A DNA stretch of 64,000 nt from an uncultured Acidobacteriota bacterium. Lineage in GTDB: Bacteria > Acidobacteriota > Terriglobia > 20CM-2-55-15. Positions 5,313 through 54,093 of this stretch are shown piece after piece (position 1 is the stretch's first letter; every line of letters begins with the position of its first letter). A model generated the notes under the pieces. The model searched no databases. It was not told where the DNA came from and saw only the letters and a list, made by a program, of their open reading frames with translations. The stretch is from positions 318 through 64,317 of the forward strand of contig CAWIJI010000015.1 of the NCBI GenBank assembly GCA_963836435.1, read 5' to 3'. Made by a program: the position numbers and the translations under genes.

Positions 5313-7222
5313 GCGTCGACCTCCGGCATCGAACACAACCATCGCCAGCGGCGGAACCGTGATGTTGAGCGAATGCGGCCGCCCGTGCATCGCTAGTCGG
5401 ACGAAGCTTCGAGGCCGCCGGCGTTGCCCTGCCCGCTGCCGCCATAAAACTCCGCATCGCTGTTCATGACCTCCTGCCACCAGCCGCCATGAGGCACACC
5501 CACCTCGATAGTTGTGATGGGCGACCGGTGTGAAGTTGCAGACGAAAGCCAGGCAACGGGAGCGATCACCCGTACGCCGCAGAAAGCTGATGAGGCTCCT
5601 CTGGTTGTCGTTGCAATCGATCCATTCAAAACCTGCCTGCATCGGAATCCGATTCATAGAGAGCCCGCTGGTTCCGGTAAAAACGCATTGAGATCCCGAA
5701 CCCAACGCTGCAGCCCGGGATGAAGCCCGGCTTCGAGCAGGTTCCAATCGAGGCTGGCGTCGTGATTCCATTCACGCCACTGCCCGAATTCGTCTCCCAT
5801 GAACAGCAGTTTCTTGCCGGGATGCCCGAACATGTAGCCGTAGAGCAGGCGCAGATTCGCGAATTTCTGCCAGTCATCTCCCGGCATCTTTCCGATCATG
5901 GAACCCTTGCCGTGAACAACTTCGTCATGGGAGAACGGCAAGAGGAAGTTTTCGGAGAACGCGTAGAGCAGACTGAACGTAATGCGATCGTGGTGATAGC
6001 TGCGGTGGATCGGATCCCTGGCCATGTAGTCGAGCATGTCGTGCATCCACCCCATGTTCCATTTGAAACCGAAGCCAAGGCCCCCGACGTAAGTCGGGCG
6101 CGAAACCATCGGCCATGAAGTCGATTCTTCGGCAATGACCGTGATGCCCGGGAACTCTCCGTAAACACGCTCGTTGAGCATCCGCAGGAACTCAATGGCC
6201 TCCAGGTTCTCTCGACCGCCGTACTTGTTCGGGATCCACTCTCCATCTCGCCTTCCATAATCGAGGTAGAGCATGGACGCCACGGCGTCCACGCGCAATC
6301 CGTCGATGTGATACTGGTCGATCCAGAAGAAGGCGTTGCTGATCAGGAAATTCCTCACCTCGACGCGTCCGAAGTTAAAAACGAAAGTGTCCCAGTCGGG
6401 ATGAAGACCCTGCCGCGAGTCGGCATGCTCGTACAGGTGGGTTCCGTCAAAGTACGCCAGGCCATGTTCGTCTCTTGGAAAATGAGCGGGGACCCAGTCC
6501 AGAATGACGCCAATACCTTTCTGGTGGAGCGTATCGACGAAGTACTTGAAATCGTCGGGGGTTCCGAAGCGGCTGGTGGGCGCGAAATAGCCCACCGTCT
6601 GATACCCCCAGGAGCCGTCAAACGGATGCTCGGCGATAGGCAGAAGTTCGACGTGGGTGAAGCCCATTTCCCGGGCATAGTCTGCCAGTTGATGAGCCAG
6701 CTCACGGTAGTTGAGCCAGCGCGCGTTCTCCTCGGGAACCCGTCGCCACGAACCGAGATGGACTTCATAGATTGACAATGGCGCGGATTGTAGAGACCTG
6801 GAAGCTCGAGCCGTCATCCAGTCGCCGTCTGTCCAGTCATACGGATGGAGTTCCCAGACCATGGATGCCGTTTTGGGGCGAATCTGTGACGCGAAACCAT
6901 AGGGATCGGCCTTGTCCACACGGTAGCCGAGATAACGAGAATGGATGTGGTATTTGTAGAGCGCGCCGAGGCCGACTCCGGGTAGAAAGCATTCCCACAC
7001 TCCGCTTTCCCGAGGGATTCCATTGGCGTGGCATCCGGATCCCAATTATTGAAATCGCCGATCACAGAAACTCGTTCCGCATTCGGCGCCCAGACGCAAA
7101 ATGAGACTCCGGCGAACGCCATTCGAGACGCGAGGATGGGCGCCGAGTTTCTCGTAGGTCCGGAAGTGCGTTCCTTCGGCGATCAGGTGAAGATCGAAAT
7201 CTGTCAGAACGGGATTCGTCAC
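5309..7222 (-). CDS. glgB: 1,4-alpha-glucan branching enzyme (short form; frameshifted)
   Basis: GTG 7222: [29 protein letters not shown]. Later fragments: [100 protein letters not shown]. Confidence 0.85.
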
Positions 7223-9387
7223 TGGTGAGTCTCCTTTCGGTCGCTCGGCCACAGCTGCGAAGAACGGTGACGGAGCGGCCATGTAAGCCCGTAACTGCGG
7301 CCCGTGAGACGGTGGGGCTTCTTCCAATTCGTATTCGAGGTATCGAGAATCCGCTCCCATCGCTGTCCCGCCTCGTGGGCGGGCAACACAAAACGAACAC
7401 TCTCGTGGTGCGCGTTCAGCATGATGAAAAGGGTATCGCCAACGACAGGGTCGCCGTGCGCGATCCACTTCATCCGCTGCGGATCCCAACAACAGGAACA
7501 CCCACGCAGCGCGCAAAATGCGTATTCCACGCACGCTCGTCCATTTCTCTGCCGTTGGGGCCGAACCAGGTTGACGTCCTTGACGCTTGTCGCCGCGAAA
7601 AGCTCCGCCCTTGAAAAATTTTCGCTTCCGAAGAACAGGATTGCTCGGCGCGCAAGCGGATCATGAAGCGGACGAAGTCGAGAAAACCTCTGCTTGTGTT
7701 CGTCCGGAGTCCAGTCGAACCAGTTGATCTCGTTATCCTGGCAGTAGGCATTGTTGTTGCCGTTTTGCGTCCGGCTCAGTTCATCGCCGCCACTAAGCAT
7801 GGGAACACCCTGGGAAAGCAACAGGGTGGCCATGAAGTTTCTTTTCTGCTGTTCGCGCAGAGCCTGAACACCGAGGTGATCTGTCGGGCCTTCGAACCCA
7901 CAATTCCAGCTGAGATTGTGGTTTTCGCCGTCAGTATTCATTTCGCCGTTCGCTTCGTTGTGTTTTTGGTTGTAACTGACCAGATCCTGCAACGTGAATC
8001 CATCGTGAGACGTAACGAAATTGATGCTGGCATAAGGCCGGCGCCCGCTGTGCTCATAAAGATCGCTGCTCCCCGCCAGTCGCGTGGCCATTTCCGAGAT
8101 GACGCCGTCGTCGCCCCTCCAGAAGCGGCGGACCGCGTCGCGATATTTCCCGTTCCACTCGGTCCAGCCAATCGGAAAATTTCCGACCTGGTAGCCGCCT
8201 TCGCCGAGGTCCCAGGGCTCCGCGATGAGTTTGACCTGCGACAGGATCGGATCCTGGTGGATGATGTCGAAGAATGCGCTCAGCCGGTCCACTTCGTGCA
8301 ACTCCCTGGCGAGAGCGCTTGCCAGATCGAACCGGAACCCATCCACGTGCATCTCCACCACCCAGTAGCGCAGGCTGTCCATAATCATCTGGAGAACCCG
8401 CGGGTGGAGCATGTTCAAAGTGTTGCCACACCCGGTAAAGTCCACGTAGTACCGCGGATCCGGGGGGAACAACCGGTAGTAGGAAACGTTGTCGATACCG
8501 CGCAGCGACAGCGTCGGGCCAAAATGATTCCCTTCCGCCGTATGGTTGTAGACGACATCCAGGATCACTTCGAGACCTGCCGAATGGATGTTGCGCACCA
8601 TAGTCTTGAACTCACGGACACAGTCCAGAGGAGACTTGGCCATGGAATAGCGAACGTCTGGGGCGAAAAACGCGCTCGTGTTGTAACCCCAGTAGTTGCT
8701 CAACCCGCGTTCCACGAGATGACGGTCATAGGCATGATGATGGACCGGCATCAATTCCACGGCCGTAACTCCCAGGTTCTGCAAATACCTCAGGACCGAT
8801 TCTGATCCGAGACCGGCGTAGGTGCCGCGCATCTTCTCAGGAAGCCCGGGATGACGCTGAGTAAACCCCTTGACGTGAGTCTCATAGATGATCGTTTGAT
8901 GCCAGGGGATGCGCGGTGGATGGTCATCGCCCCAGGTAAAGGCGGTATCAATGACAACCGCAAGAGGGCAGCAGAATGCATTGTCTCTGGTGTCGAAAGC
9001 CAGGTCCCCATCCGGATTGCCGATAGTGTAGGCGTACATTTCATCGTACCAGCTTGTGGTTCTCCCGACGGCCTTGGCGTAGGGTTCCATGACGATCTTG
9101 TTGGCGTTGAAGCGCTGGCCGCGTTCCGGAGCGTAAGGCCCGTACATCCGGTATCCGTACAACTGCCCGGGCAAAACGCCCGGCAGATATGCGTGCCAGA
9201 TCTGGTCGGTCTGCTCCTCCACAACAACGCGGCTGGATTCCCGGCGGGCCTTCGGCGAATCAAAAAGACATAACTCCACGCGCGTCGCATGTTCCGAAAA
9301 AATGGAAAAATTTACTCCGGCCCCGTCCCATGTCGCGCCGAGTGGATACGGACTGCCTATTCTCGGTTTTGGTGCCTGGTGGTTCAC
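7219..9387 (-). CDS. glgX: Glycogen debranching enzyme GlgX/TreX (compensating frameshifts near the C-terminus)
   Basis: 722-aa ORF with [83 protein letters not shown] start overlaps the glgE stop. Confidence 0.9.
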
Positions 9388-11375
9388 AAGTAATAGTCAA
9401 AATCCTGTTCGCTGCGGACGCGGCGCCGAATCTTGAAAATGTGCGCCGGAATTCCCTGCGGGCTGAGTTCGACGTAATTTCGAGATCCCTGCCACAGATA
9501 ACGTCCATCTCCAAGCAGATCGTGCACCTGGAAAGGCGACGACTCCTCCAGTCCCAGGGCCTTCAGGTCCAGATTCACCCATCCGGAATGCGTATGCCGG
9601 AAATCCAGATTCACGACAATGAGGATTGCGTTTGAAAGATCGGGACTTGTCTTGCTGTAGCAAAGCAGATCCCCGTTGTCAACTTCGTGAAAAACCAGAC
9701 GACGGTTCTGGTGCAGCGCCACGTTCTCCTTTCGGATCAGATTTACCCTGGAGATAAGGTCTTTGAGGCTCCATTCGCTGTCGAGATTCCAGGTCTTGAT
9801 TTCATACTTCTCCGACTCGAAATACTCCTCACTGCCCGGCGTCTTCGCGACGTTATTCACCAATTCGAAAGCGGGGCCGTAGATTCCGTAGCTGGCACCA
9901 AGCGTCGCGGCAAGGACGAGGCGGACCATCGAAGCTGGACGGCCGCCGAGTTCCAGGTGTTCGGGCAGAATGTCGGGTGTATTCGGCCACAGATTGGGGC
10001 GCATATAGTCGTGCACATCCGTGGTTGTCAGTTCTGTGAAGTACTCGGTCAGTTCCTGACTCGTATTGCGCCAGGTAAAGTAGGTGTAGGACTGCGAGAA
10101 TCCCAGTTTCGCCAACCGGTACATCACCTTCGGACGAGTGAACGCTTCGGCAAGAAAAATGGTTTCGGGATAGCGCGCCTGCACCTCGGGGATCAGCCAT
10201 TCCCAGAAGGGAAACGCCTTGGTGTGCGGGTTGTCGACGCGAAAAATACGAACTCCCTGCTCGCACCAGTAGAAGACGACGCGACGCAGTTCCTCCCAGA
10301 GTTGCTCCCAGGCCGCGGTCTCAAAATCCAGCGGATAGATGTCCTGATACTTCTTGGGAGGATTCTCCGCGTATTGAATGGTCCCGTCGGGCCGGCTGCG
10401 AAACCATTCGGGGTGCTGCCGGACCCACGGATGGTCGGGAGTGCACTGGAATGCCAGGTCCATCGCAAGTTCGAGGCCGTGCTTGCGCGCACTGGCCATC
10501 AGCCGCAGAAAATCGGCAAGGGTTCCGAGTTTGGGCTCAATCGCATCATGACCACCGGCCTCGCTTCCGATAGCCCAGGGGCTGCCGACGTCGTTTGGGC
10601 CTGCAGCAGGGGCATTGTTGCGACCCTTGCGATTCGTATGTCCGATGGGATGAACAGGCGGCAAATACAGAACGTCGAATCCCATCGCCGAAACGTACGG
10701 CAAACGGGCCTCGCAATCCGCAAACGTCCCATGACGGCCGGGCTCGGGCGCGCACGATCTGGGGAACATCTCGTACCAGGCGCTGTAGCGCGCCCTTTCA
10801 CGCTCCACGCGAACCCACAACTCCCGTTCGTAACGCGTGGAGAACCGCCGGTCGGGGTAGCGAAACACAACCGCCGCCATATCGAGATCCAGCGCCAGCG
10901 CCCCCGCGTCAACGGAGCCGGCGACACCTCGCAGATCCGCTGCCCAACCCGAAAGAGCCGCCGCATCCGGACCGGAGGCTCGACCTGCCGCGTCATCAAT
11001 CAAATCAGCGCCAATAAGGATGTCGACGCGAATATCCTGGCCAGCCTCGATCCTTTTGACCAGGTTGGTGCGCCACGTCTTGAAGTGATCGACCCAGCCC
11101 TCGATCGTGTAGGCATAACGGCCCAAAACGTCGACCTTGAACTCACCCCGCCAGCGGTCGTTGTCCACGAAATCCATGGGCGACTCCGACCATTCGGACG
11201 TGCTTTCAGTCCGGTAGAGGAGCACGCAGGAAAGCAGGTCGTGCCCGTCTGCAAAAATATCTCCCTCCACGACTACGGTTTCACCTGTGACGCGCTTGAT
11301 GGGAAAGCGGCCGCCGTCGACTTGGGGAAGAACCCCCTCAATAACTACTCGCCTACGCCCCTGACTCATGGGCAC
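9384..11375 (-). CDS. glgE: Alpha-1,4-glucan:maltose-1-phosphate maltosyltransferase
   Basis: Intact 663-aa ORF: WYEMFPRS, DVLYLPPVHPIG, GSPWAIG, AENPPKKYQDIYPL, IFRVDNPHTK, FLAEAFTRP, SQSYTYFTWR, NTPDIL. Confidence 0.92.
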   Translation of the reverse strand: MPMSQGRRRVVIEGVLPQVDGGRFPIKRVTGETVVVEGDIFADGHDLLSCVLLYRTESTSEWSESPMDFVDNDRWRGEFKVDVLGRYAYTIEGWVDHFKTWRTNLVKRIEAGQDIRVDILIGADLIDDAAGRASGPDAAALSGWAADLRGVAGSVDAGALALDLDMAAVVFRYPDRRFSTRYERELWVRVERERARYSAWYEMFPRSCAPEPGRHGTFADCEARLPYVSAMGFDVLYLPPVHPIGHTNRKGRNNAPAAGPNDVGSPWAIGSEAGGHDAIEPKLGTLADFLRLMASARKHGLELAMDLAFQCTPDHPWVRQHPEWFRSRPDGTIQYAENPPKKYQDIYPLDFETAAWEQLWEELRRVVFYWCEQGVRIFRVDNPHTKAFPFWEWLIPEVQARYPETIFLAEAFTRPKVMYRLAKLGFSQSYTYFTWRNTSQELTEYFTELTTTDVHDYMRPNLWPNTPDILPEHLELGGRPASMVRLVLAATLGASYGIYGPAFELVNNVAKTPGSEEYFESEKYEIKTWNLDSEWSLKDLISRVNLIRKENVALHQNRRLVFHEVDNGDLLCYSKTSPDLSNAILIVVNLDFRHTHSGWVNLDLKALGLEESSPFQVHDLLGDGRYLWQGSRNYVELSPQGIPAHIFKIRRRVRSEQDFDYYL

Positions 11376-11785
11376 ACCCCTAAATCATTCATTTTAAAAG
11401 TCTCTATTTGCTTAATCGCCGCAGCTTAAGTGACGGCGTGGTCCAGCGGGCCGTTCGAAAAAGTGAGCTAGGATTTGGATCGATCCAGATGTAGCCGTAT
11501 TAGGATACCAGCCTGAGGGGGCGAGTCTCAAGGGAAAGACCCGCATTCCCGCATTGGTAACACTGATGGGGACTATTCTAGCTGAAAGCGGAATACGAGA
11601 AGGCTTTGGAGAAAGCCCAGCAGGAGGAGCTCGCCGCAGCAAGAAGAGCGGCCGAGATGGAAAAGGCAGCAGGGTTGGCCGAGGCGAACGGAGTGAGCCT
11701 CCGGAAACAGCCGCTTCAGGCCACGTTGGCCGGCCTTATTCCGGCGTGACCCGGAATGCTCACGAAGGAGGAATTGGTTCTAGAA

Positions 11786-12045
11786 GCACGCCGGAGGCGT
11801 GCTCTGGAGTTTGGACATTTTGCACGCCGGAGGCGTGAAAGGAAGGTAGCCCCGGGTGGAGCGCAGCGACACCCGGGGTTCATCTCACGAGCGGCGTTTG
11901 CACCCCGGCAGGGGCCCCGGCAGGGGTGCGAGGAATCCCTGCACCCCTGCCGGGGTGCAAGATTCCCGCTACGGTAACCCGGGTTGCGCTCGCTTCGCTC
12001 GCTTAACCCGGGGCTAAATTCTGAGCACGCCTCCGGCGTGCTCAG
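11786..12045 (+). repeat. Palindromic repeat family 1, full copy A (~260 bp, REPIN/MITE-like)
   Basis: Bounded by GCACGCCGGAGGCGTGC (11786-11802) and its reverse complement GCACGCCTCCGGCGTGC (12024-12040). Internal nested inverted repeats (TAGCCCCGGG...CCCGGGGCTA; GCACCCCGGCAGGGG...CCCCTGCCGGGGTGC). The core recurs at ~12138-12260, ~32616-32760 and 52565-52782. Confidence 0.85.
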
Positions 12046-12137
12046 ACTCACGTTTCAACGTCGCCATCGCCTTGCGGACGAATCTGAAAACCGGAGACGT
12101 AACCTCGTGTTTCCGCTCCCGCTCAGACTCAACAAGG

Positions 12138-26554: not shown

Positions 26555-26642
26555 AATTCGGGGCCGTGCACCTCGAACCCCAAATTCGAATTCCGTTGAG
26601 CCTTGGCTCTAATTGGGGGTTCGAGGTGCACGGCCCCGAATT
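26555..26642. repeat. 88-bp inverted-repeat element (32-bp arms, 1 mismatch)
   Basis: AATTCGGGGCCGTGCACCTCGAACCCCAAATT (26555-26586), 24-nt spacer, AATTGGGGGTTCGAGGTGCACGGCCCCGAATT (26611-26642). Confidence 0.85.
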
Positions 26643-26646
26643 TAGG

Positions 26647-27084
26647 TTAGGGTTTGATGATCTTTACCAGATAGTAGGTAATAGGGCTGGAGACTTCCTT
26701 GAACCAGTGCGGTGTACCGGCCGGCACGGCAACGATGTCTCCCTTGCTGAGGTGATGCGTCTGACCGCCCTGGATCTCGGTCCCCAGTTGCTGGTTCGGC
26801 CGGGTGACGCGGCCACCGACCATCGTCCCTCCGGTGACAAACGTGGCTTCGCCATCGAGGACGTAGAAGGTATCGGTCTCCTTGTCATGCACTTCCACCT
26901 GGCCGGGTCCGGATCGCTTCGCCATCGAAGCGGTAAAATCCGGGCCGCTTGCCAACGCCCCGCCGTTGGCAATGGCAGCCGACACCTTGTCGTGATCGAC
27001 ATAGGTCACATTGGCAGTTCCCTGGGCAAAGCTCATGGAAAGAGCGGTCGCAAACAATGTTATGGCAACGAGTAGACGCTTCAT
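26647..27084 (-). CDS. Secreted cupin-domain protein (paralog 1)
   Basis: Signal peptide; EVHDKETDTFYV and AGTPHWF cupin motifs. Confidence 0.8.
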   Translation of the reverse strand: MKRLLVAITLFATALSMSFAQGTANVTYVDHDKVSAAIANGGALASGPDFTASMAKRSGPGQVEVHDKETDTFYVLDGEATFVTGGTMVGGRVTRPNQQLGTEIQGGQTHHLSKGDIVAVPAGTPHWFKEVSSPITYYLVKIIKP

Positions 27085-27093
27085 CTTTTTCTC

Positions 27094-27525
27094 CTAAGGT
27101 TGGATGACCTTCACCACGTAATACGTAATCGAATGCGGAATCTGTTTGAACCAGTGCGGCGTGCCGGCACGGATCACAATAACGTCGCCCTTACTCAGGT
27201 GGTAGGTCTGTCCGCCCTGAATACTCGAGCCCAGTTCCTGGTTCGGCCTGCTGGTTCTGCCGCCGATCATGGTTCCGCCGGTAACGAAAGTCGCCTCTCC
27301 GTCGAGGACGTAAAAGGTGTCGGTTTCCTTCGCGTGCACTTCTACGCGGCCGGCCGCGGCGCGTTTCATCATCAGGACCTTGAAATCAGGCCCGGTAGCC
27401 AGGTTTGCGCCGCTGGCCGCCGCGGCGACCTTCGTATGGCCCACATAAGTTGCGCTTTGCCGTCCCTGCGCGGCCGTGATCGACAGACACGCCAGCAGGG
27501 CAGCCATGACCAGTCCGGTTTTCAT
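27094..27525 (-). CDS. Secreted cupin-domain protein (paralog 2)
   Basis: Signal peptide; EVHAKETDTFYV and AGTPHWF; near-identical core to the neighbouring gene. Confidence 0.8.
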   Translation of the reverse strand: MKTGLVMAALLACLSITAAQGRQSATYVGHTKVAAAASGANLATGPDFKVLMMKRAAAGRVEVHAKETDTFYVLDGEATFVTGGTMIGGRTSRPNQELGSSIQGGQTYHLSKGDVIVIRAGTPHWFKQIPHSITYYVVKVIQP

Positions 27526-31782: not shown

Positions 31783-31850
31783 CTGTTATCGAAAAGCAAA
31801 ACTTGTTGCCGATACGCCATCACGGCGCAGGTGCCGAAAGCGAGGGGAAT

Positions 31851-32366
31851 ATGACCGCGGATCACGCCAAAGCTATCGCCGATTATTTTGCCACCATGTT
31901 CGACCAGGAAAGCGCGAACACCGTCAAGGTGCTGCGCGCGGTTCCCAACGATCGCCGCGACTACAAGCCGGATGGAAAGTCCCGGACGGCGTGGGAGTTG
32001 GCAACCCACCTTGCCGGCTCGGACCTGTGGTTTCTCGATAGCGTCTGCGACGCGGTGTTCGTCTACGACCCGGAGGTCGAGAACAAGCGTACTGCAGGGC
32101 TCAACACCATGGACGACATCGTCGAATTCTACAAGCGCGAGTACCCGAAGCGAATCGAGCGGCTCCGCTCAACCCCGGGCGAGCAACTTGCGAAGGAGGT
32201 CGATTTCTTCGGCGTGACCAGGGGGCCGTCGATCTCGTTCCTGGGGCTGGCCAACAACCATGGCATCCATCACCGCGGCCAACTGATGACATACCTCCGA
32301 GCGATGGGGTCGAAAGTGCCGTCGATCTACGGCGGCAGCGCCGACGAGCCCTTCCAGGGGGCGTAG
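31851..32366 (+). CDS. DinB family protein
   Basis: TVKVLRAVP, YKPDGKSRTAWELATH, NHGIHHRGQLMTYLRAMG. Confidence 0.88.
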   Translation: MTADHAKAIADYFATMFDQESANTVKVLRAVPNDRRDYKPDGKSRTAWELATHLAGSDLWFLDSVCDAVFVYDPEVENKRTAGLNTMDDIVEFYKREYPKRIERLRSTPGEQLAKEVDFFGVTRGPSISFLGLANNHGIHHRGQLMTYLRAMGSKVPSIYGGSADEPFQGA

Positions 32367-32493: not shown

Positions 32494-32615
32494 GGGAAAG
32501 AGTGGGGAAAGAGGGACAGCCTCGAGATTGTCCCTTCCCCCCCAGGTTCTAGAACAGGGGCGACGAGTTGTTTCTGCAATTCGCAAAGGCGGCATTGGAC
32601 AAGAGGGTCTCATAC

Positions 32616-32822
32616 CCGGCAGGGGTGCAGGGCTCCTCGCCCCCCTGCCGGGCCCTGCCGGGGTGCGAACGCCCCTCGTGAGATGAACCCCGGGTGTCGC
32701 TACGCTCCACCCGGGGCTACCTTCCTTTCACGCCTCTGGCGTGCAAAATGTCTAAACTCCAGGCGCCGAAGGCGCCGCCGCGCAAGCGCCCGAGCCGGGG
32801 TCCGGGGCAGAGCCCCGTCTAG
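32616..32822. repeat. Composite repeat C: inverted family 1 left part joined to the right half of family 2
   Basis: 32616-32760 is the reverse complement of copy A's left ~60%; 32761-32822 is AGGCGCCGAAGGCGCC...GCGCAAGCGCCCGAGCCGGGGTCCGGGGCAGAGCCCCGTCTAG. Confidence 0.8.
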
Positions 32823-32840
32823 TTTGTGGCGACGATCGCT

Positions 32841-33830
32841 TCATCGTGAATGCTCCACCGTAATCACGACATTTCCCTTCTTGTGCCCTTGCTCAACATA
32901 CTTGAAAGCTTCCGCGATCTGCTTCAAGGGATAACTCCTGTCGATGACCGGCTGGAGCTTCCCAGCCGCGGCAAGTTCTGCGATGAGAGTCATTCGCTCC
33001 AGGTTGTTGATAGCCACACCGCCCCTCATTTTCTTACCACCGGCGATGGAGGTCCATAGCATCCGAACCATGTCAGTCAAACCCATGATGCAGGGAAGAA
33101 AGATGCCTTTGGGCTTCAGCGAGTTTTGGCAGCGATCGAAAGTGGTCGCGCCGACGACGTCAAATATCAGGTCGTAGGTTTCTGTATTCCTGGTGAAATC
33201 TTCCTTCGTGTAGTCGATCACCTTGTCCGCACCCAGGGATTTCACCATTTCTATGTTCGCACCGCTGCACACCGCGGTCACGGTCGCCCCAAAGTGTTTG
33301 GCCAGCTGCACGGCGGCCGAGCCGATGCTCCCCGAAGCTCCAAGGATCAGAAGCTCCTCCCCGGCATGGAGCTTCCCCAGGGCGCGGAGGTAATACAACG
33401 CGGTGTTGGCTCCAAAGGGAATAGCAACTGCCGCCTCCCAACTCAGCGAATCCGGCTTGATCGCCAAAGCCCCCTTTTCGGGAAGGCATGCGTACTGGGC
33501 GTGCCCTCCGCCCACCATGCCGGTCGAGGCAAGAACCCGGTCCCCCGTCTTAAACCTCGTAACGTCTTTCCCCACTCCCTCCACTTCCCCGGCCAGCTCA
33601 GTCCCGAGGACGCGTTCTTTCCATGGCTTTCCAATACCAAAGATGAGTTTCGCAATCGGGAGCATGGATTTGGTAACGAAAGTGAAATTGCGGACGTTGC
33701 AGTCCCCGCTCGACACCGTGGTCGCGTGTATTTTGATCAGGACTTCGCTGTCCTTGGGAACGGGTTTGTCCACCTCCTTGAACTGGAGAAGATCGGGGGA
33801 GCCGTATTGGGTGTGCAGAATCGCTTTCAC
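32841..33830 (-). CDS. NAD(P)-dependent MDR-family oxidoreductase (quinone reductase/ADH-like)
   Basis: GSPDLLQFKEVDKPVP, VLGTELAGEVEGVGKDVTRF, GASGSIG, DYTKEDF, GHKKGNVVI. Confidence 0.88.
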   Translation of the reverse strand: MKAILHTQYGSPDLLQFKEVDKPVPKDSEVLIKIHATTVSSGDCNVRNFTFVTKSMLPIAKLIFGIGKPWKERVLGTELAGEVEGVGKDVTRFKTGDRVLASTGMVGGGHAQYACLPEKGALAIKPDSLSWEAAVAIPFGANTALYYLRALGKLHAGEELLILGASGSIGSAAVQLAKHFGATVTAVCSGANIEMVKSLGADKVIDYTKEDFTRNTETYDLIFDVVGATTFDRCQNSLKPKGIFLPCIMGLTDMVRMLWTSIAGGKKMRGGVAINNLERMTLIAELAAAGKLQPVIDRSYPLKQIAEAFKYVEQGHKKGNVVITVEHSR

Positions 33831-36416: not shown

Positions 36417-36690
36417 TTAATGGCGTTTGAACGCAAGAAGTGCCTTCTCCGCCAATCCTCGCGCTCTCAACACAAGTTTCCCCGCAAAGGCGGAACCTGC
36501 CCTGAACTTGCGGTTTGCCTCGACGATCCTTTGATCAACAAACACTTCATCGGGAAACCTGAACGATGTTGTGTCACGCAACGCCACATCAAACCTGCCC
36601 GTCTTGCCGCAGTTGACACCAGTACCATCAAGTCCGGGGTTTTTCACCAAGGACCGGGTGGGATATACCGTGTACTGGTCGCCGGAGCTA
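36417..36690 (-). pseudogene. 3' remnant of a glycosyltransferase (GT-A/GT2-like)
   Basis: DQYTVYPTRSLVKNPGLDGTGVNCG resembles the recalled C-terminal YP-x2-SLV-x-N-x-G-x-DG-x-G-x-HC motif of sugar transferases; no 5' part. Confidence 0.55.
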
Positions 36691-36694
36691 CGCT

Positions 36695-36853
36695 CCGCGT
36701 GCTTGATGGATATGGACTTTGCGGTAAGTCGGCCGCTTGTCCCACGCTCGCCTTACCCGGTTCTTGTCCATCGACTCGCGTTTTTGCTTAGCACTTCAGA
36801 CCCCGCCTCGCGGCAGTAGCCCCTGCGTTTTCGCCAACCCTTCACCTCCATCA
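36695..36853 (-). mobile_element. Group II intron 5'-region (domain I) fragment, no RT ORF
   Basis: Minus strand TGATGGAGGTGAAG...GCGAGGCGGGGTCTGAAG...CGAGTCGATGGACAAGAACCGG...CGCAAAGTCCATATCCATCAAG follows the segment order I recall for bacterial group II intron 5' ends. The GUGYG terminus is absent. Confidence 0.6.
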
Positions 36854-46565: not shown

Positions 46566-46627
46566 TGAAATCAGCTCCTTTCTTTCGCTTCTTTGGAAAA
46601 CAGAGCCCATCGCAACAACAGTGTCTT

Positions 46628-46738
46628 TAGCTCGTTATGCCGTAACGAGAATTTTGTTCACGCAAGGCATAACGGGCCAGGCGCCCGAAGGCGCCGCGCA
46701 AGCGCCCGAGCCGGGGTCCGGGGCGGAGCCCCGTCTAG
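46628..46738 (+). repeat. Repeat family 2, empty copy E (~111 bp)
   Basis: TAGCTCGTTATGCCG...TAACGAGAATTTTGTTCACGCAAGGCATAACGGGCCAGGCGCCCGAAGGCGCCGCGCAAGCGCCCGAGCCGGGGTCCGGGGCGGAGCCCCGTCTAG; same sequence as the flanks of copy D. Confidence 0.85.
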
Positions 46739-46815
46739 TTGGCACTTGGGTGAGAGGCGCCGATCATATCTCCTCGAGCCGGGTGTCGGCAAATTGCGCG
46801 GACGCCAGATCCAGG

Positions 46816-47931: not shown

Positions 47932-48119
47932 CAGATCATAGCGGTGGGGCCGACTGTACGCATCAATCCTTTCATGGGCGCACGTCTGGCACACTTCGGA
48001 AAGCAAACCGTGACAGTTCCATGGAGGCACGATGGAATACGCTCGCCTGATTCCGGGTTCGAGGTGCGCAACCCCGAATTCGCGATAGAATCTCTGCATT
48101 CTTTTTCCGAGGTCGAACG

Positions 48120-52492: not shown

Positions 52493-52838
52493 CTAGCTCG
52501 TTATGCCGGGCATAACGAGAATTTTGTTCCCGCAAGCCATAACGGGCCAGGCGCCGAAGGCGCCCTGGAGTTTAGTTAGACATTCTAGCCCCGGGTGGAG
52601 CGCAGCGACACCCGGGGTTCATCTCACGAGGGGCGTTCGCACCCCGGCAGGCCCCGGCAGGGGTGCGAGGAATCCCTGCACCCCTGCCGGGGTGCGAACA
52701 TCTCCGTTACGGCAACCCCGGGTTGCGCTCGCTTCGCTCGCTTAACCCGGGGCTAAATTCTCAGCACGCCTCCGGCGTGCTAGCGCCGAAGGCGCCGCGC
52801 AAGCGCCCGACCCGGGGTCCGGGGCAGAGCCCCGTCTA
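52493..52838 (+). repeat. Composite repeat D: family 1 element (52565-52782) nested inside family 2
   Basis: Family 2 left half, GCGCCGAAGGCGCC (52551-52564), 218-bp family 1 insert, GCGCCGAAGGCGCC (52783-52796), family 2 right half. Confidence 0.9.
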
Positions 52839-54093
52839 CCTGGACTCCGCGGCCCCAACCGGCCGGTAGTCGATCTGATCCGCCTGCTCGAAAATCCTGC
52901 CGGCCGGATTGAAGATCTGATTCAGCAACAAGCCCACGAAGAGGAGTGCGGAGAACCCCGTGGCAAGAGCGAAGCCATAAATCGGACCGCCCATGGCGTC
53001 GCTGACTGCGCCCATCGCCAGCGGAGCCAGCACAGCCGAAATGCAGGTATAGAAGAGAATCACTCCTGCGGCGGCACCGTGCTCCGACTTCGGCACGCAA
53101 CTGATGCCCTTGGAATTGATCGTCGGATAGATCACGGACATGAACAGTCCGGACAAGGGTAAGGAATAGACGGCCCAGCGCACGCCACCGGCAATGCTGA
53201 TTGCGAAACATGCCAGGATCAGTCCGCTGCAGATGGTCAGAACCGAGGTCCACGAAAGCTCGGTTCAGCATCCAGGCGCCCAGGAATCGTCCGCCGGCGC
53301 GGAGCAGAAAGAAAATCGAGATGCTGTAGACGGCGATCCATTTCCCGGCACCGCTGTAGTCCGCCAGGAGCGTCGGCATCCACACATAGATCGCGGCTTC
53401 AACCGCGACATAAAGAAATGCTCCCAGCGAGAACAACAGAACGAAGCGGTTCTTCATCACCGCCATGATGGACTCAGATCCGTGTGTTCCGCCGCTGCCG
53501 AAGCCCGCTTGGGGTACTGAGCTCCAGATGCAGTCAGAATCAGCAGGACGCACATACTGCCCGCGATCACGTACAGCCAGTGCCATGGAACGCTGCGATT
53601 CAACAACTGAGCCAGAACGGCCGGGCCCAAGATCGAACCAATGCCGAAAAAGCCTTCGACCCAGTTCATGATCGAGGTGTGTTCCGCGGTCGATCTCGAG
53701 ATGTCGCCGATAAGCGCGAGCGCACCGGTCTTGAAGATACCGATGGCGATGCCGGAAAGAGCCATCAGCACGCAGAAAAACAGAAACGAGCTTCCCGCGA
53801 GGAAGAGGTACGAGGAGGCGGCGAAAAGCGTCAGGCCGGTGACGAATGGTCGTTTTCCTTCCGTACCGGTCCGCCAGGTGACCAAGGAAAAAGCCGGCCA
53901 TCGCGATGCCCGCCATCGTGGCGTATTGAAACGTTCCCGCTGCGGTCAGGCTCAATCGGAACGTCTTCACGATTTCCGGAATGATGATGCCGACCGAGTC
54001 GGTAGTCATGGCAAACATCGCGAACATCAGATAGGTCAGGATCTTGAGGGCCGTCATGTTCAAACGGCTGCCCGAGCCGGCCGGCTGCATCAT
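52836..54093 (-). CDS. MFS sugar transporter (FucP/GluP-like), frameshifted
   Basis: FAMTTDSVGIIIP, LADRYGRK, GIFKTGALALIG, EGFFGIG, YVAVEAAIYVW, FMSVIYPTINSKGI across three frames. Confidence 0.8.

Follow-up and report, generated by a model that had tools for sequence, protein, structure and literature searches.

Insertion sequences of the IS1182 family are listed in ISfinder with direct repeats of 0–60 bp. IS1630, an IS30-family element of Mycoplasma fermentans (Calcutt, Lavrrar & Wise 1999, cited in PMC3317919 and PMC2853133), duplicates hairpins on insertion, with duplications of 16–26 bp; the element is autonomous, 1.2–1.4 kb long and bounded by 27-bp ends, and in its AT-rich mollicute host it carries a transposase of the IS30 type. 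In Yersinia, YPAL (RU-2) inserts at or beside dyad symmetries, with duplications of 3–26 bp (De Gregorio et al. 2006, summarised in PMC2229807). Elements of the IS110 type (ISPpu10) are found beside GC-rich REP stem-loops, where structure outweighs the sequence of the stem (bioRxiv 10.64898/2026.03.19.712850).

The repeats described here, which we call the T family, resemble IS1630 in hairpin-duplicating insertion and in their long and variable duplications (14–23 bp here, 16–26 bp in IS1630), but only gene-less derivatives are seen, and in a GC-rich acidobacterium. By its description, YPAL is likewise small (168 bp), GC-rich, non-coding and abundant between genes, with variable duplications; its inverted repeats, however, are internal, no 16-bp terminal inverted repeat (TIR) is reported for it, and the host belongs to a different phylum. 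With IS110 elements the T family shares insertion next to a GC-rich stem-loop: whereas those elements make a 2-bp duplication, rely on an RNA-guided sequence match, lack TIRs and use one target family, and the IS110/IS1111 family is marked by absent TIRs, a 2-bp core duplication and a DEDD transposase, the T family duplicates the whole hairpin, carries 16-bp TIRs and uses 115 different targets. The hairpin-duplicating principle is already known from IS1630 and YPAL, and the T family is an abundant and quantified further example of it.

The locus lies in a window of 64,000 nt (the whole stretch of DNA that was analysed), itself part of a 4.94-Mb soil Terriglobia MAG of 18 contigs, rated 69% complete. 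Throughout, T denotes the 15–16-nt terminus CTGGAGTTTAGACATT of a repeat termed family 1. Copies of family 1 (A, C and D) and of a second repeat, family 2, are placed in the window as follows:

11785–11803: hairpin AGCACGCC-GGA-GGCGTGCT adjoining the T of copy A, read directly
11804–12042, plus strand: copy A of family 1, from T (11804–11819) to the terminal hairpin H1rc
32616–32762, minus strand: copy C, a truncated family 1 element, 95% inverted repeat (I1) with copy A
32747–32762, minus strand: T terminus of copy C, the 16-nt CTGGAGTTTAGACATT; the plus strand reads AATGTCTAAACTCCAG
32762–32776: hairpin GGCGCC-GAA-GGCGCC at copy C, the family 2 target, read directly; single copy at the locus
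32777–32826, plus strand: family 2 right half at copy C (direct-repeat family D2)
46620–46742, plus strand: family 2 copy without insert, its one hairpin being GGCGCC-CGAA-GGCGCC (46680–46695); paralogous empty site
52497–52564, plus strand: family 2 left half and first hairpin copy (52550–52564) at copy D (repeat D10)
52565–52782, plus strand: copy D of family 1, T to H1rc, seated in the family 2 hairpin
52783–52843, plus strand: second hairpin copy (52783–52796, target duplication) and family 2 right half at copy D (D2)

In each of copies A, C and D the left end of family 1 adjoins a GC hairpin with a 3-nt loop, as an initial annotation of the window had stated and as can be read directly in the sequence; it had also described the hairpin of copy C correctly (GGCGCC-TTC-GGCGCC on the element strand), together with the opposite orientation of this copy, in which T meets the right half of family 2 via the hairpin. 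Copy C consists of the T terminus, the H1 hairpin, the left arm with the H2 hairpin, and the central hairpin – about positions 1–140 of a 333-nt reference element. The G at 32762 is common to its T and its hairpin, which folds as DNA with −7.8 kcal/mol (−9.7 kcal/mol, z −3.9, for the hairpin of copy A), and the family 2 right half that follows is 88–93% identical to 46685–46742 and 52786–52843. Copy A continues into an F3 segment (12043–12130) and then an inverted partial copy (to 12264). The T of copy D (52565–52584) carries a 4-nt insertion, AGTT, and for this reason A and C are the sole hits in the window to the terminus pattern of the initial annotation. Many copies of family 1, these three included, have doubled in tandem the 10–12-nt stretch that a nested IS4-type element (see below) duplicates in the central hairpin.

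The locus of copy C is situated between convergent genes, one of the DinB family (31803–32366, plus strand) and one for a zinc-type dehydrogenase (32841–33830, minus strand). A search of the window with Rfam matched the repeats to no family; its sole match was to group II intron domains D1–D4 (RF02001, 73 bits) at 36660–36817 on the minus strand. Two further repeats were observed in the window: an inverted repeat at 26555–26642 with 35-nt arms, 94% complementary and 18 nt apart (related copy at 48047–48080), and a 272-nt direct repeat pair at 26699–27417 with a spacing of 447 nt and 71% identity.

Across the genome, about 60 elements, 217–346 nt long with a sharp mode at 331–334 nt, carry T at either end as a 16-nt TIR. 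The complete element of this modal length is composed of T, the family 1 body, a 90-nt F3 segment and an inverted T, and the body reads, in order, hairpin H1, left arm with hairpin H2, central hairpin, right arm and inverted H1. Positions at which BLAST matches end cluster at 1, 225–227 (the end of inverted H1) and 333 of the reference element. A second common form, to which copies A and D belong, runs from T to a terminal GC hairpin only, and it is this form that had been annotated as family 1. What had been taken for the left end of family 1 is thus a genuine terminus, though not one peculiar to that end: it is a TIR common to several element types and present at both ends of the complete element. 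In total the T element family accounts for 855 BLAST pieces and 83 kb, or 1.7% of the assembly. The short T elements show no reading frame that resembles a transposase. With a TIR, a target duplication, small size, no coding capacity and many copies, the T family is a MITE, and non-autonomous.

The T motif is also present in four further genera of the same taxonomic family, next to hairpins of other sequence (GGGGCGGTC-TAT-GACCGCCCC is one) and with element interiors that differ; the only contigs from related genome collections with this element end bear the title Terriglobia bacterium. Among copies from contigs C14, C2 and C10, and likewise between 11925–11950 of the window and other copies, the loop segment of the central hairpin is found in both orientations (GCGAGGAATCCCTGC and GCAGGGATTCCTCGC), an inversion within the hairpin.

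Junctions were collected over the whole genome, a check that the initial annotation had proposed, by searching for the 15–16-nt terminus with up to two mismatches (368 occurrences) and by scoring as perfect any hairpin with a stem of at least 5 bp and a loop of 3–9 nt that ended within 4 nt of T. A perfect hairpin was found at 271 of the 368 T ends (74%), compared to 4.4% of 20,000 random genomic positions, and the hairpins concerned comprise 115 distinct sequences: genome-wide, most copies do not lack an adjacent triloop hairpin. The result is similar when only T ends with a single-copy outer flank are considered (n=176), of which 124 adjoin a perfect hairpin and a further 13 a hairpin with imperfections (70–78%); at the same single-copy-flank loci shifted by 25–60 nt a hairpin is present in 4–11% of cases.

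Insertion targets are nearly perfect palindromes rich in GC. At insertions the hairpin is not just adjoined but duplicated, a point that the initial annotation had missed. There are 54 non-redundant elements that lie between direct repeats of 14–23 nt (mode 17) placed directly at the element ends. The duplicated repeat is the hairpin plus 0–4 nt, and its length tracks that of the hairpin; where stems are longer than about 24 nt, only the inner part or one side is duplicated. Duplications are found with both forms of the element, T...T (34) and T...hairpin (20), while about 300 of the 368 T ends lie in nested or tandem arrays, in which duplication is not scorable. For 24 of the 54, the duplicated sequence is found nowhere else in the genome, and the second copy was therefore made on insertion. 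Family 2 provides paralogous sites for comparison: 28 of its 63 left halves are continuous with a right half via one hairpin, 22 are followed by the hairpin and then directly by a T element, and empty and filled paralogues differ by exactly the element plus one hairpin copy. In a genome of the same genus (G001) orthologous sites are too diverged at the DNA level for an empty-site comparison.

About 20 of the duplication-bearing elements have T at one end only, with a hairpin (H1rc plus TT) at the other. Shorter units form tandem arrays too: those of 35 nt are T and a hairpin alone, and those of 127 nt have F3 in addition. Head-to-tail arrays that start with T, with units of 35, 127, about 164 and about 200 nt that each end in the same type of hairpin, were observed at the following places:

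contig C2, reverse-strand offsets 373305–373479: tandem T-unit array
contig C2, reverse-strand offsets 330516–331334: tandem T-unit array
contig C16, 61392–62407: tandem T-unit array
contig C3, 90210–90464: tandem T-unit array

It looks as if, in these arrays, the terminal hairpin of each unit served as the target of the next insertion. Arrays of this kind could also be read as the product of recombination, slippage and gene conversion among hairpin modules, giving mosaics like those of REPs and BIMEs with no defined transposing unit. Such a history would accommodate tandem units of 35, 127, 164–210 and about 227 nt that all end in one hairpin type, the swapping or inversion of internal parts between copies, and the fact that copy C is itself rearranged and truncated. 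It would not account for the 24 elements that each lie between two copies of a hairpin found at no other place in the genome, nor for sharp element ends at positions 1, 225–227 and 333, nor for empty and filled paralogous sites that differ by the element and a single hairpin copy, and we judge it very improbable.

The juxtaposition of T with one or the other half of family 2 carries no information on orientation in complete elements, since T stands at both of their ends. Orientation was therefore scored from an informative end, that is, T joined to the left arm of family 1, by strict patterns and by reading of the flanks. This end lies beside the left half of family 2 in 14 cases and beside the right half in 13; for the end formed by T and F3 the corresponding numbers are 5 and 3. 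Irrespective of the orientation of the insert, the loop reads GAA in the frame of family 2 in all 31 of the family 2 junctions read. Elements have thus inserted in both orientations, and equally often, at the same palindrome. Together with the 115 hairpin sequences and the duplication of the whole hairpin, the near-equal orientations (14 and 13) bear out the suggestion of the initial annotation that hairpin structure is targeted regardless of strand.

Copy C was inserted at the family 2 palindrome in the orientation opposite to that of copy D, and its distal part was lost later. A truncated copy, which the initial annotation had not recognised, it has no far end, no second hairpin copy and no left half of family 2; the repeat breaks off at 32615/32616, where the central hairpin has its outer edge, and sequence upstream is unique. 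That the truncation came after insertion is indicated by the rarity, family-wide, of BLAST end points at this break position and by the other copies in the same orientation, most of which – where traceable – have the full arrangement with both halves of family 2.

The initial annotation had offered a second possibility, a flip of the insert between the GGCGCC hexamers, which are self-complementary. In this scheme each locus received one insertion, after which the element inverted between the flanking hairpin copies, so that C and D would be alternative states of a switch. The duplicated hairpins, being palindromes, do form inverted repeats of 6–9 bp at the element ends, a ratio of 50:50 fits a switch as well as it fits random insertion, and inversions of the loop within the element's own central hairpin do occur between copies. 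A crossover in the outer arms, however, would invert loops, and loop orientation is constant in the 31 junctions; one in the inner arms of the hairpin copies would leave no trace in a static assembly. Arms of 6–9 bp, moreover, fall short of what homologous recombination requires, the elements have no linked invertase, and C and D are different loci with flanks of their own, C having a single hairpin copy that cannot flip. Flipping is neither needed to explain the data nor supported by them, and we consider the switch quite improbable.

The size of the loop matters. Perfect GC-rich hairpins with a stem of at least 7 bp were counted outside the element family and grouped by loop size:

3-nt loop: 67 of 394 hairpins with a T end (17%)
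4-nt loop: 9 of 377 hairpins with a T end (2.4%)
loop of 5 nt or more: 5 of 1,143 hairpins with a T end (no single loop size above 0.8%)

These figures are rough, given that each insertion yields two occupied hairpins and that some of the triloop hairpins belong to other repeat families, but even so the drop between 3 and 4 nt, at sevenfold, is large: the preference is real, and triloops are strongly preferred. Target loops are mostly GGA/TCC or GAA/TTC, which is the form of the genome's REP-like hairpins, and the genome has Y1 transposase genes of the REP-associated kind. One IS200-type Y1 gene (160 aa; within contig C3, 36712–40044) is followed by the hairpin CGCACCCT-TTC-AGGGTGCG and an array of repeats with a 210-nt period. 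Three more Y1 genes, of the REP-associated type, are located elsewhere, and the abundant GNA-triloop hairpins on which T elements land may derive from these genes.

Hairpins might instead be recognised as single strands or with the help of an RNA guide, by enzymes of the IS200/IS605 or REP-type Y1 class or by IS110/IS1111 recombinases. The genome holds four Y1 transposase-like genes, one of them beside an array of these repeats, and two IS110-type remnants; for IS110 elements, which insert next to REP stem-loops, the stem-loop gates the insertion (bioRxiv 10.64898/2026.03.19.712850); and many T elements end in a GC hairpin, as do IS200-type and rolling-circle elements. Yet both kinds of enzyme leave either no duplication or one of 2 bp, as against 14–23 bp here, and IS110 targeting is sequence-specific by way of its RNA, as against 115 different targets. 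For the same reasons mobilisation as a REP or REPIN by a Y1 (RAYT) or IS200/IS605-type transposase was rejected, duplications of 14–23 nt and 115 targets being set against no duplication and a short specific site. The only IS110-type element found beside a T end is nested and terminates 110 nt before T, and Y2 (IS91-type) genes are not linked to T. Recognition of this kind is, in our judgement, quite improbable.

The IS110-type element in question lies on a metagenome contig (Ga0209399_10016020) and its ends were placed by alignment with homologues in genomes G042 and G048: its own ends lie 110 nt before T, and it was dismissed as the carrier of T. It represents an IS110-family element of about 1.7 kb with the ends CCTTATAGT... 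and ...CAGATGTCT(T/C)C, present in 11 copies in G048; all five of the copies that were read there share the same site sequence, which looks like repeated coding sequence. A Y2 (IS91-type) gene upstream in the same contig was set aside as well, as no T occurs near its homologues in G000, G009, G002, G042 and G043.

A search for an autonomous T-ended element with a transposase found none in the 69%-complete genome, four relatives, the GTDB species set and 21 metagenome contigs; the relatives are short-read assemblies, in which repeats break contigs. All the long T...T elements found are short ones with another mobile element inside one of their own hairpins. In this genome there are three: the one of 2501 nt holds a serine-recombinase element, that of 2876 nt an element of the IS4 type and that of 1409 nt a small DDE element. 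The first occupant, situated in the loop of H2, is a 2.24-kb unit distinct from its host, with inverted arms and a core of its own, and the large serine recombinase that it encodes was rejected as the transposase of the family. The unit, which also encodes a ribbon-helix-helix protein in addition to the 585-aa recombinase, is present within:

contig C14, within the T...T element at 6943–9443: copy of the 2.24-kb unit
contig C2, 70224–72697: copy of the 2.24-kb unit
contig C10, 171477–173950: copy of the 2.24-kb unit
contig C10, 95978–97445: deleted copy

Its inverted arms measure 20–25 nt and share, in this genome, a 9-bp common core, an arrangement like the product of attP × attB recombination. 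In a soil metagenome contig (Ga0210076_1005048) a T...T element of 2610 nt likewise has the unit in its H2 loop, but oppositely oriented and with a core of 2 bp (AT). Relatives of the unit, at 57–75% identity, lie in two genomes without T inside a gene for a group II intron reverse transcriptase; there (G018 C9, C44 and C39; G046 C50) the site is the conserved PQGG / SPLLAN motif that group II introns typically have, and the terminal arms are of the same kind. The unit seems to belong to a family of small recombinase elements that specialises in landing on other mobile elements.

Should the large serine recombinase nevertheless be the family's own, it would be the enzyme that moves T elements. 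The coding T...T elements that contain it are the only ones met in more than one data set (this genome and the unrelated soil metagenome contig), and in this genome its reading frame runs through the T end of the MITE into the flank. Against this, the recombinase is part of a unit with arms of its own and a 2-bp (AT) or 9-bp core inside the H2 loop; copies of the unit in this genome differ at 2 of about 2240 positions whereas the left part of the host element differs at about 24 of 170; relatives occupy a group II intron reverse-transcriptase gene in genomes that lack T; and recombinases of this class act with a 2-bp overlap, not with duplications of 14–23 bp. That it moves the family is extremely improbable.

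The remaining candidates were likewise rejected. The 2876-nt T...T element contains a DUF4338 (DruA-like) gene and an IS4-type DDE gene, apparently frameshifted, in the central hairpin of the MITE (contig C16, 121150–124350); these belong to a nested element with a TIR of its own (CAATGNCATTCGC) and a 10-bp duplication, while the host element is flanked by a perfect 23-nt hairpin duplication. The 287-aa DDE frame of the 1409-nt T...T element is that of a small nested IS of about 1.06 kb, with a weak IS1182/IS5-type match, its own TIR and a 9-bp duplication, in the loop of H2 (contig C11, 68300–70400); this loop therefore hosts two different elements, the serine-recombinase unit and the small DDE IS. 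An IS1182-type element with five copies in the genome differs in its ends (CTAGGAGCC...) and duplicates 4 bp, CTAG, and no IS1182-type gene (DUF772 plus DDE_Tnp_1_6) with T ends was found here or in the four relatives. Duplications of 14–15 bp prompted a search for Cas1 or casposases, of which the genome has none. Nor does the genome have a match to the IS30-family transposase (NF033563), an absence that applies to a 69%-complete assembly only.

Taken together, the arrangement at copy C is probably explained as the T end of a non-autonomous MITE copy whose family inserts at hairpins, and duplicates them, in either orientation. Insertion of this kind would involve two strand-transfer cuts, one on either side of the palindrome and symmetric about its dyad. 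A transpososome of the DDE type could capture the palindrome either as an extruded cruciform or as a symmetric and easily distorted duplex, and would act in trans, with a habit like that of IS30-family IS1630 or of IS1182-family elements. Orientation would be random because a symmetric target looks alike from both sides. From the geometry we infer capture as a cruciform: a stagger of 14–23 bp that follows the palindrome would be hard for an active site of fixed geometry on B-DNA, whereas the base of a cruciform, where the cut sites lie close to each other, would fit it easily, and a short centre of the palindrome favours extrusion. Points that speak against this explanation are the failure of the search above to turn up a T-ended element with a transposase, the nested occupants of the long T...T elements, the many T ends in arrays in which duplication is not scorable, and the existence of one-ended T...hairpin elements with clean duplications, which a TIR-specific transposase does not obviously explain.

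A more far-reaching reading would be that a transposase not previously linked to hairpin duplication reads the shape of DNA, cuts cruciforms with a 3-nt centre at their base and accepts a GC hairpin as the far end; the hairpin loops of the MITE would, in addition, be landing pads for second-tier parasites, among them a minimal serine-recombinase element with relatives that land in group II intron genes. An enzyme that reads shape and takes a GC hairpin for a second end would explain the one-ended units as well as the tandem arrays. We regard this reading as conceivable but doubtful.

For the biology of the family, the numbers show that a family of transposons can choose its targets by the shape of DNA and not by sequence. 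Each element ends in a hairpin that is a new target, which explains the tandem and nested arrays, and these arrays in turn make the genomes that carry them hard to assemble. Each insertion also copies the hairpin, such that a terminator-like hairpin stays on both sides of the element: insertions behind genes should thus be nearly harmless, and this helps to explain how the family has spread to hundreds of copies.
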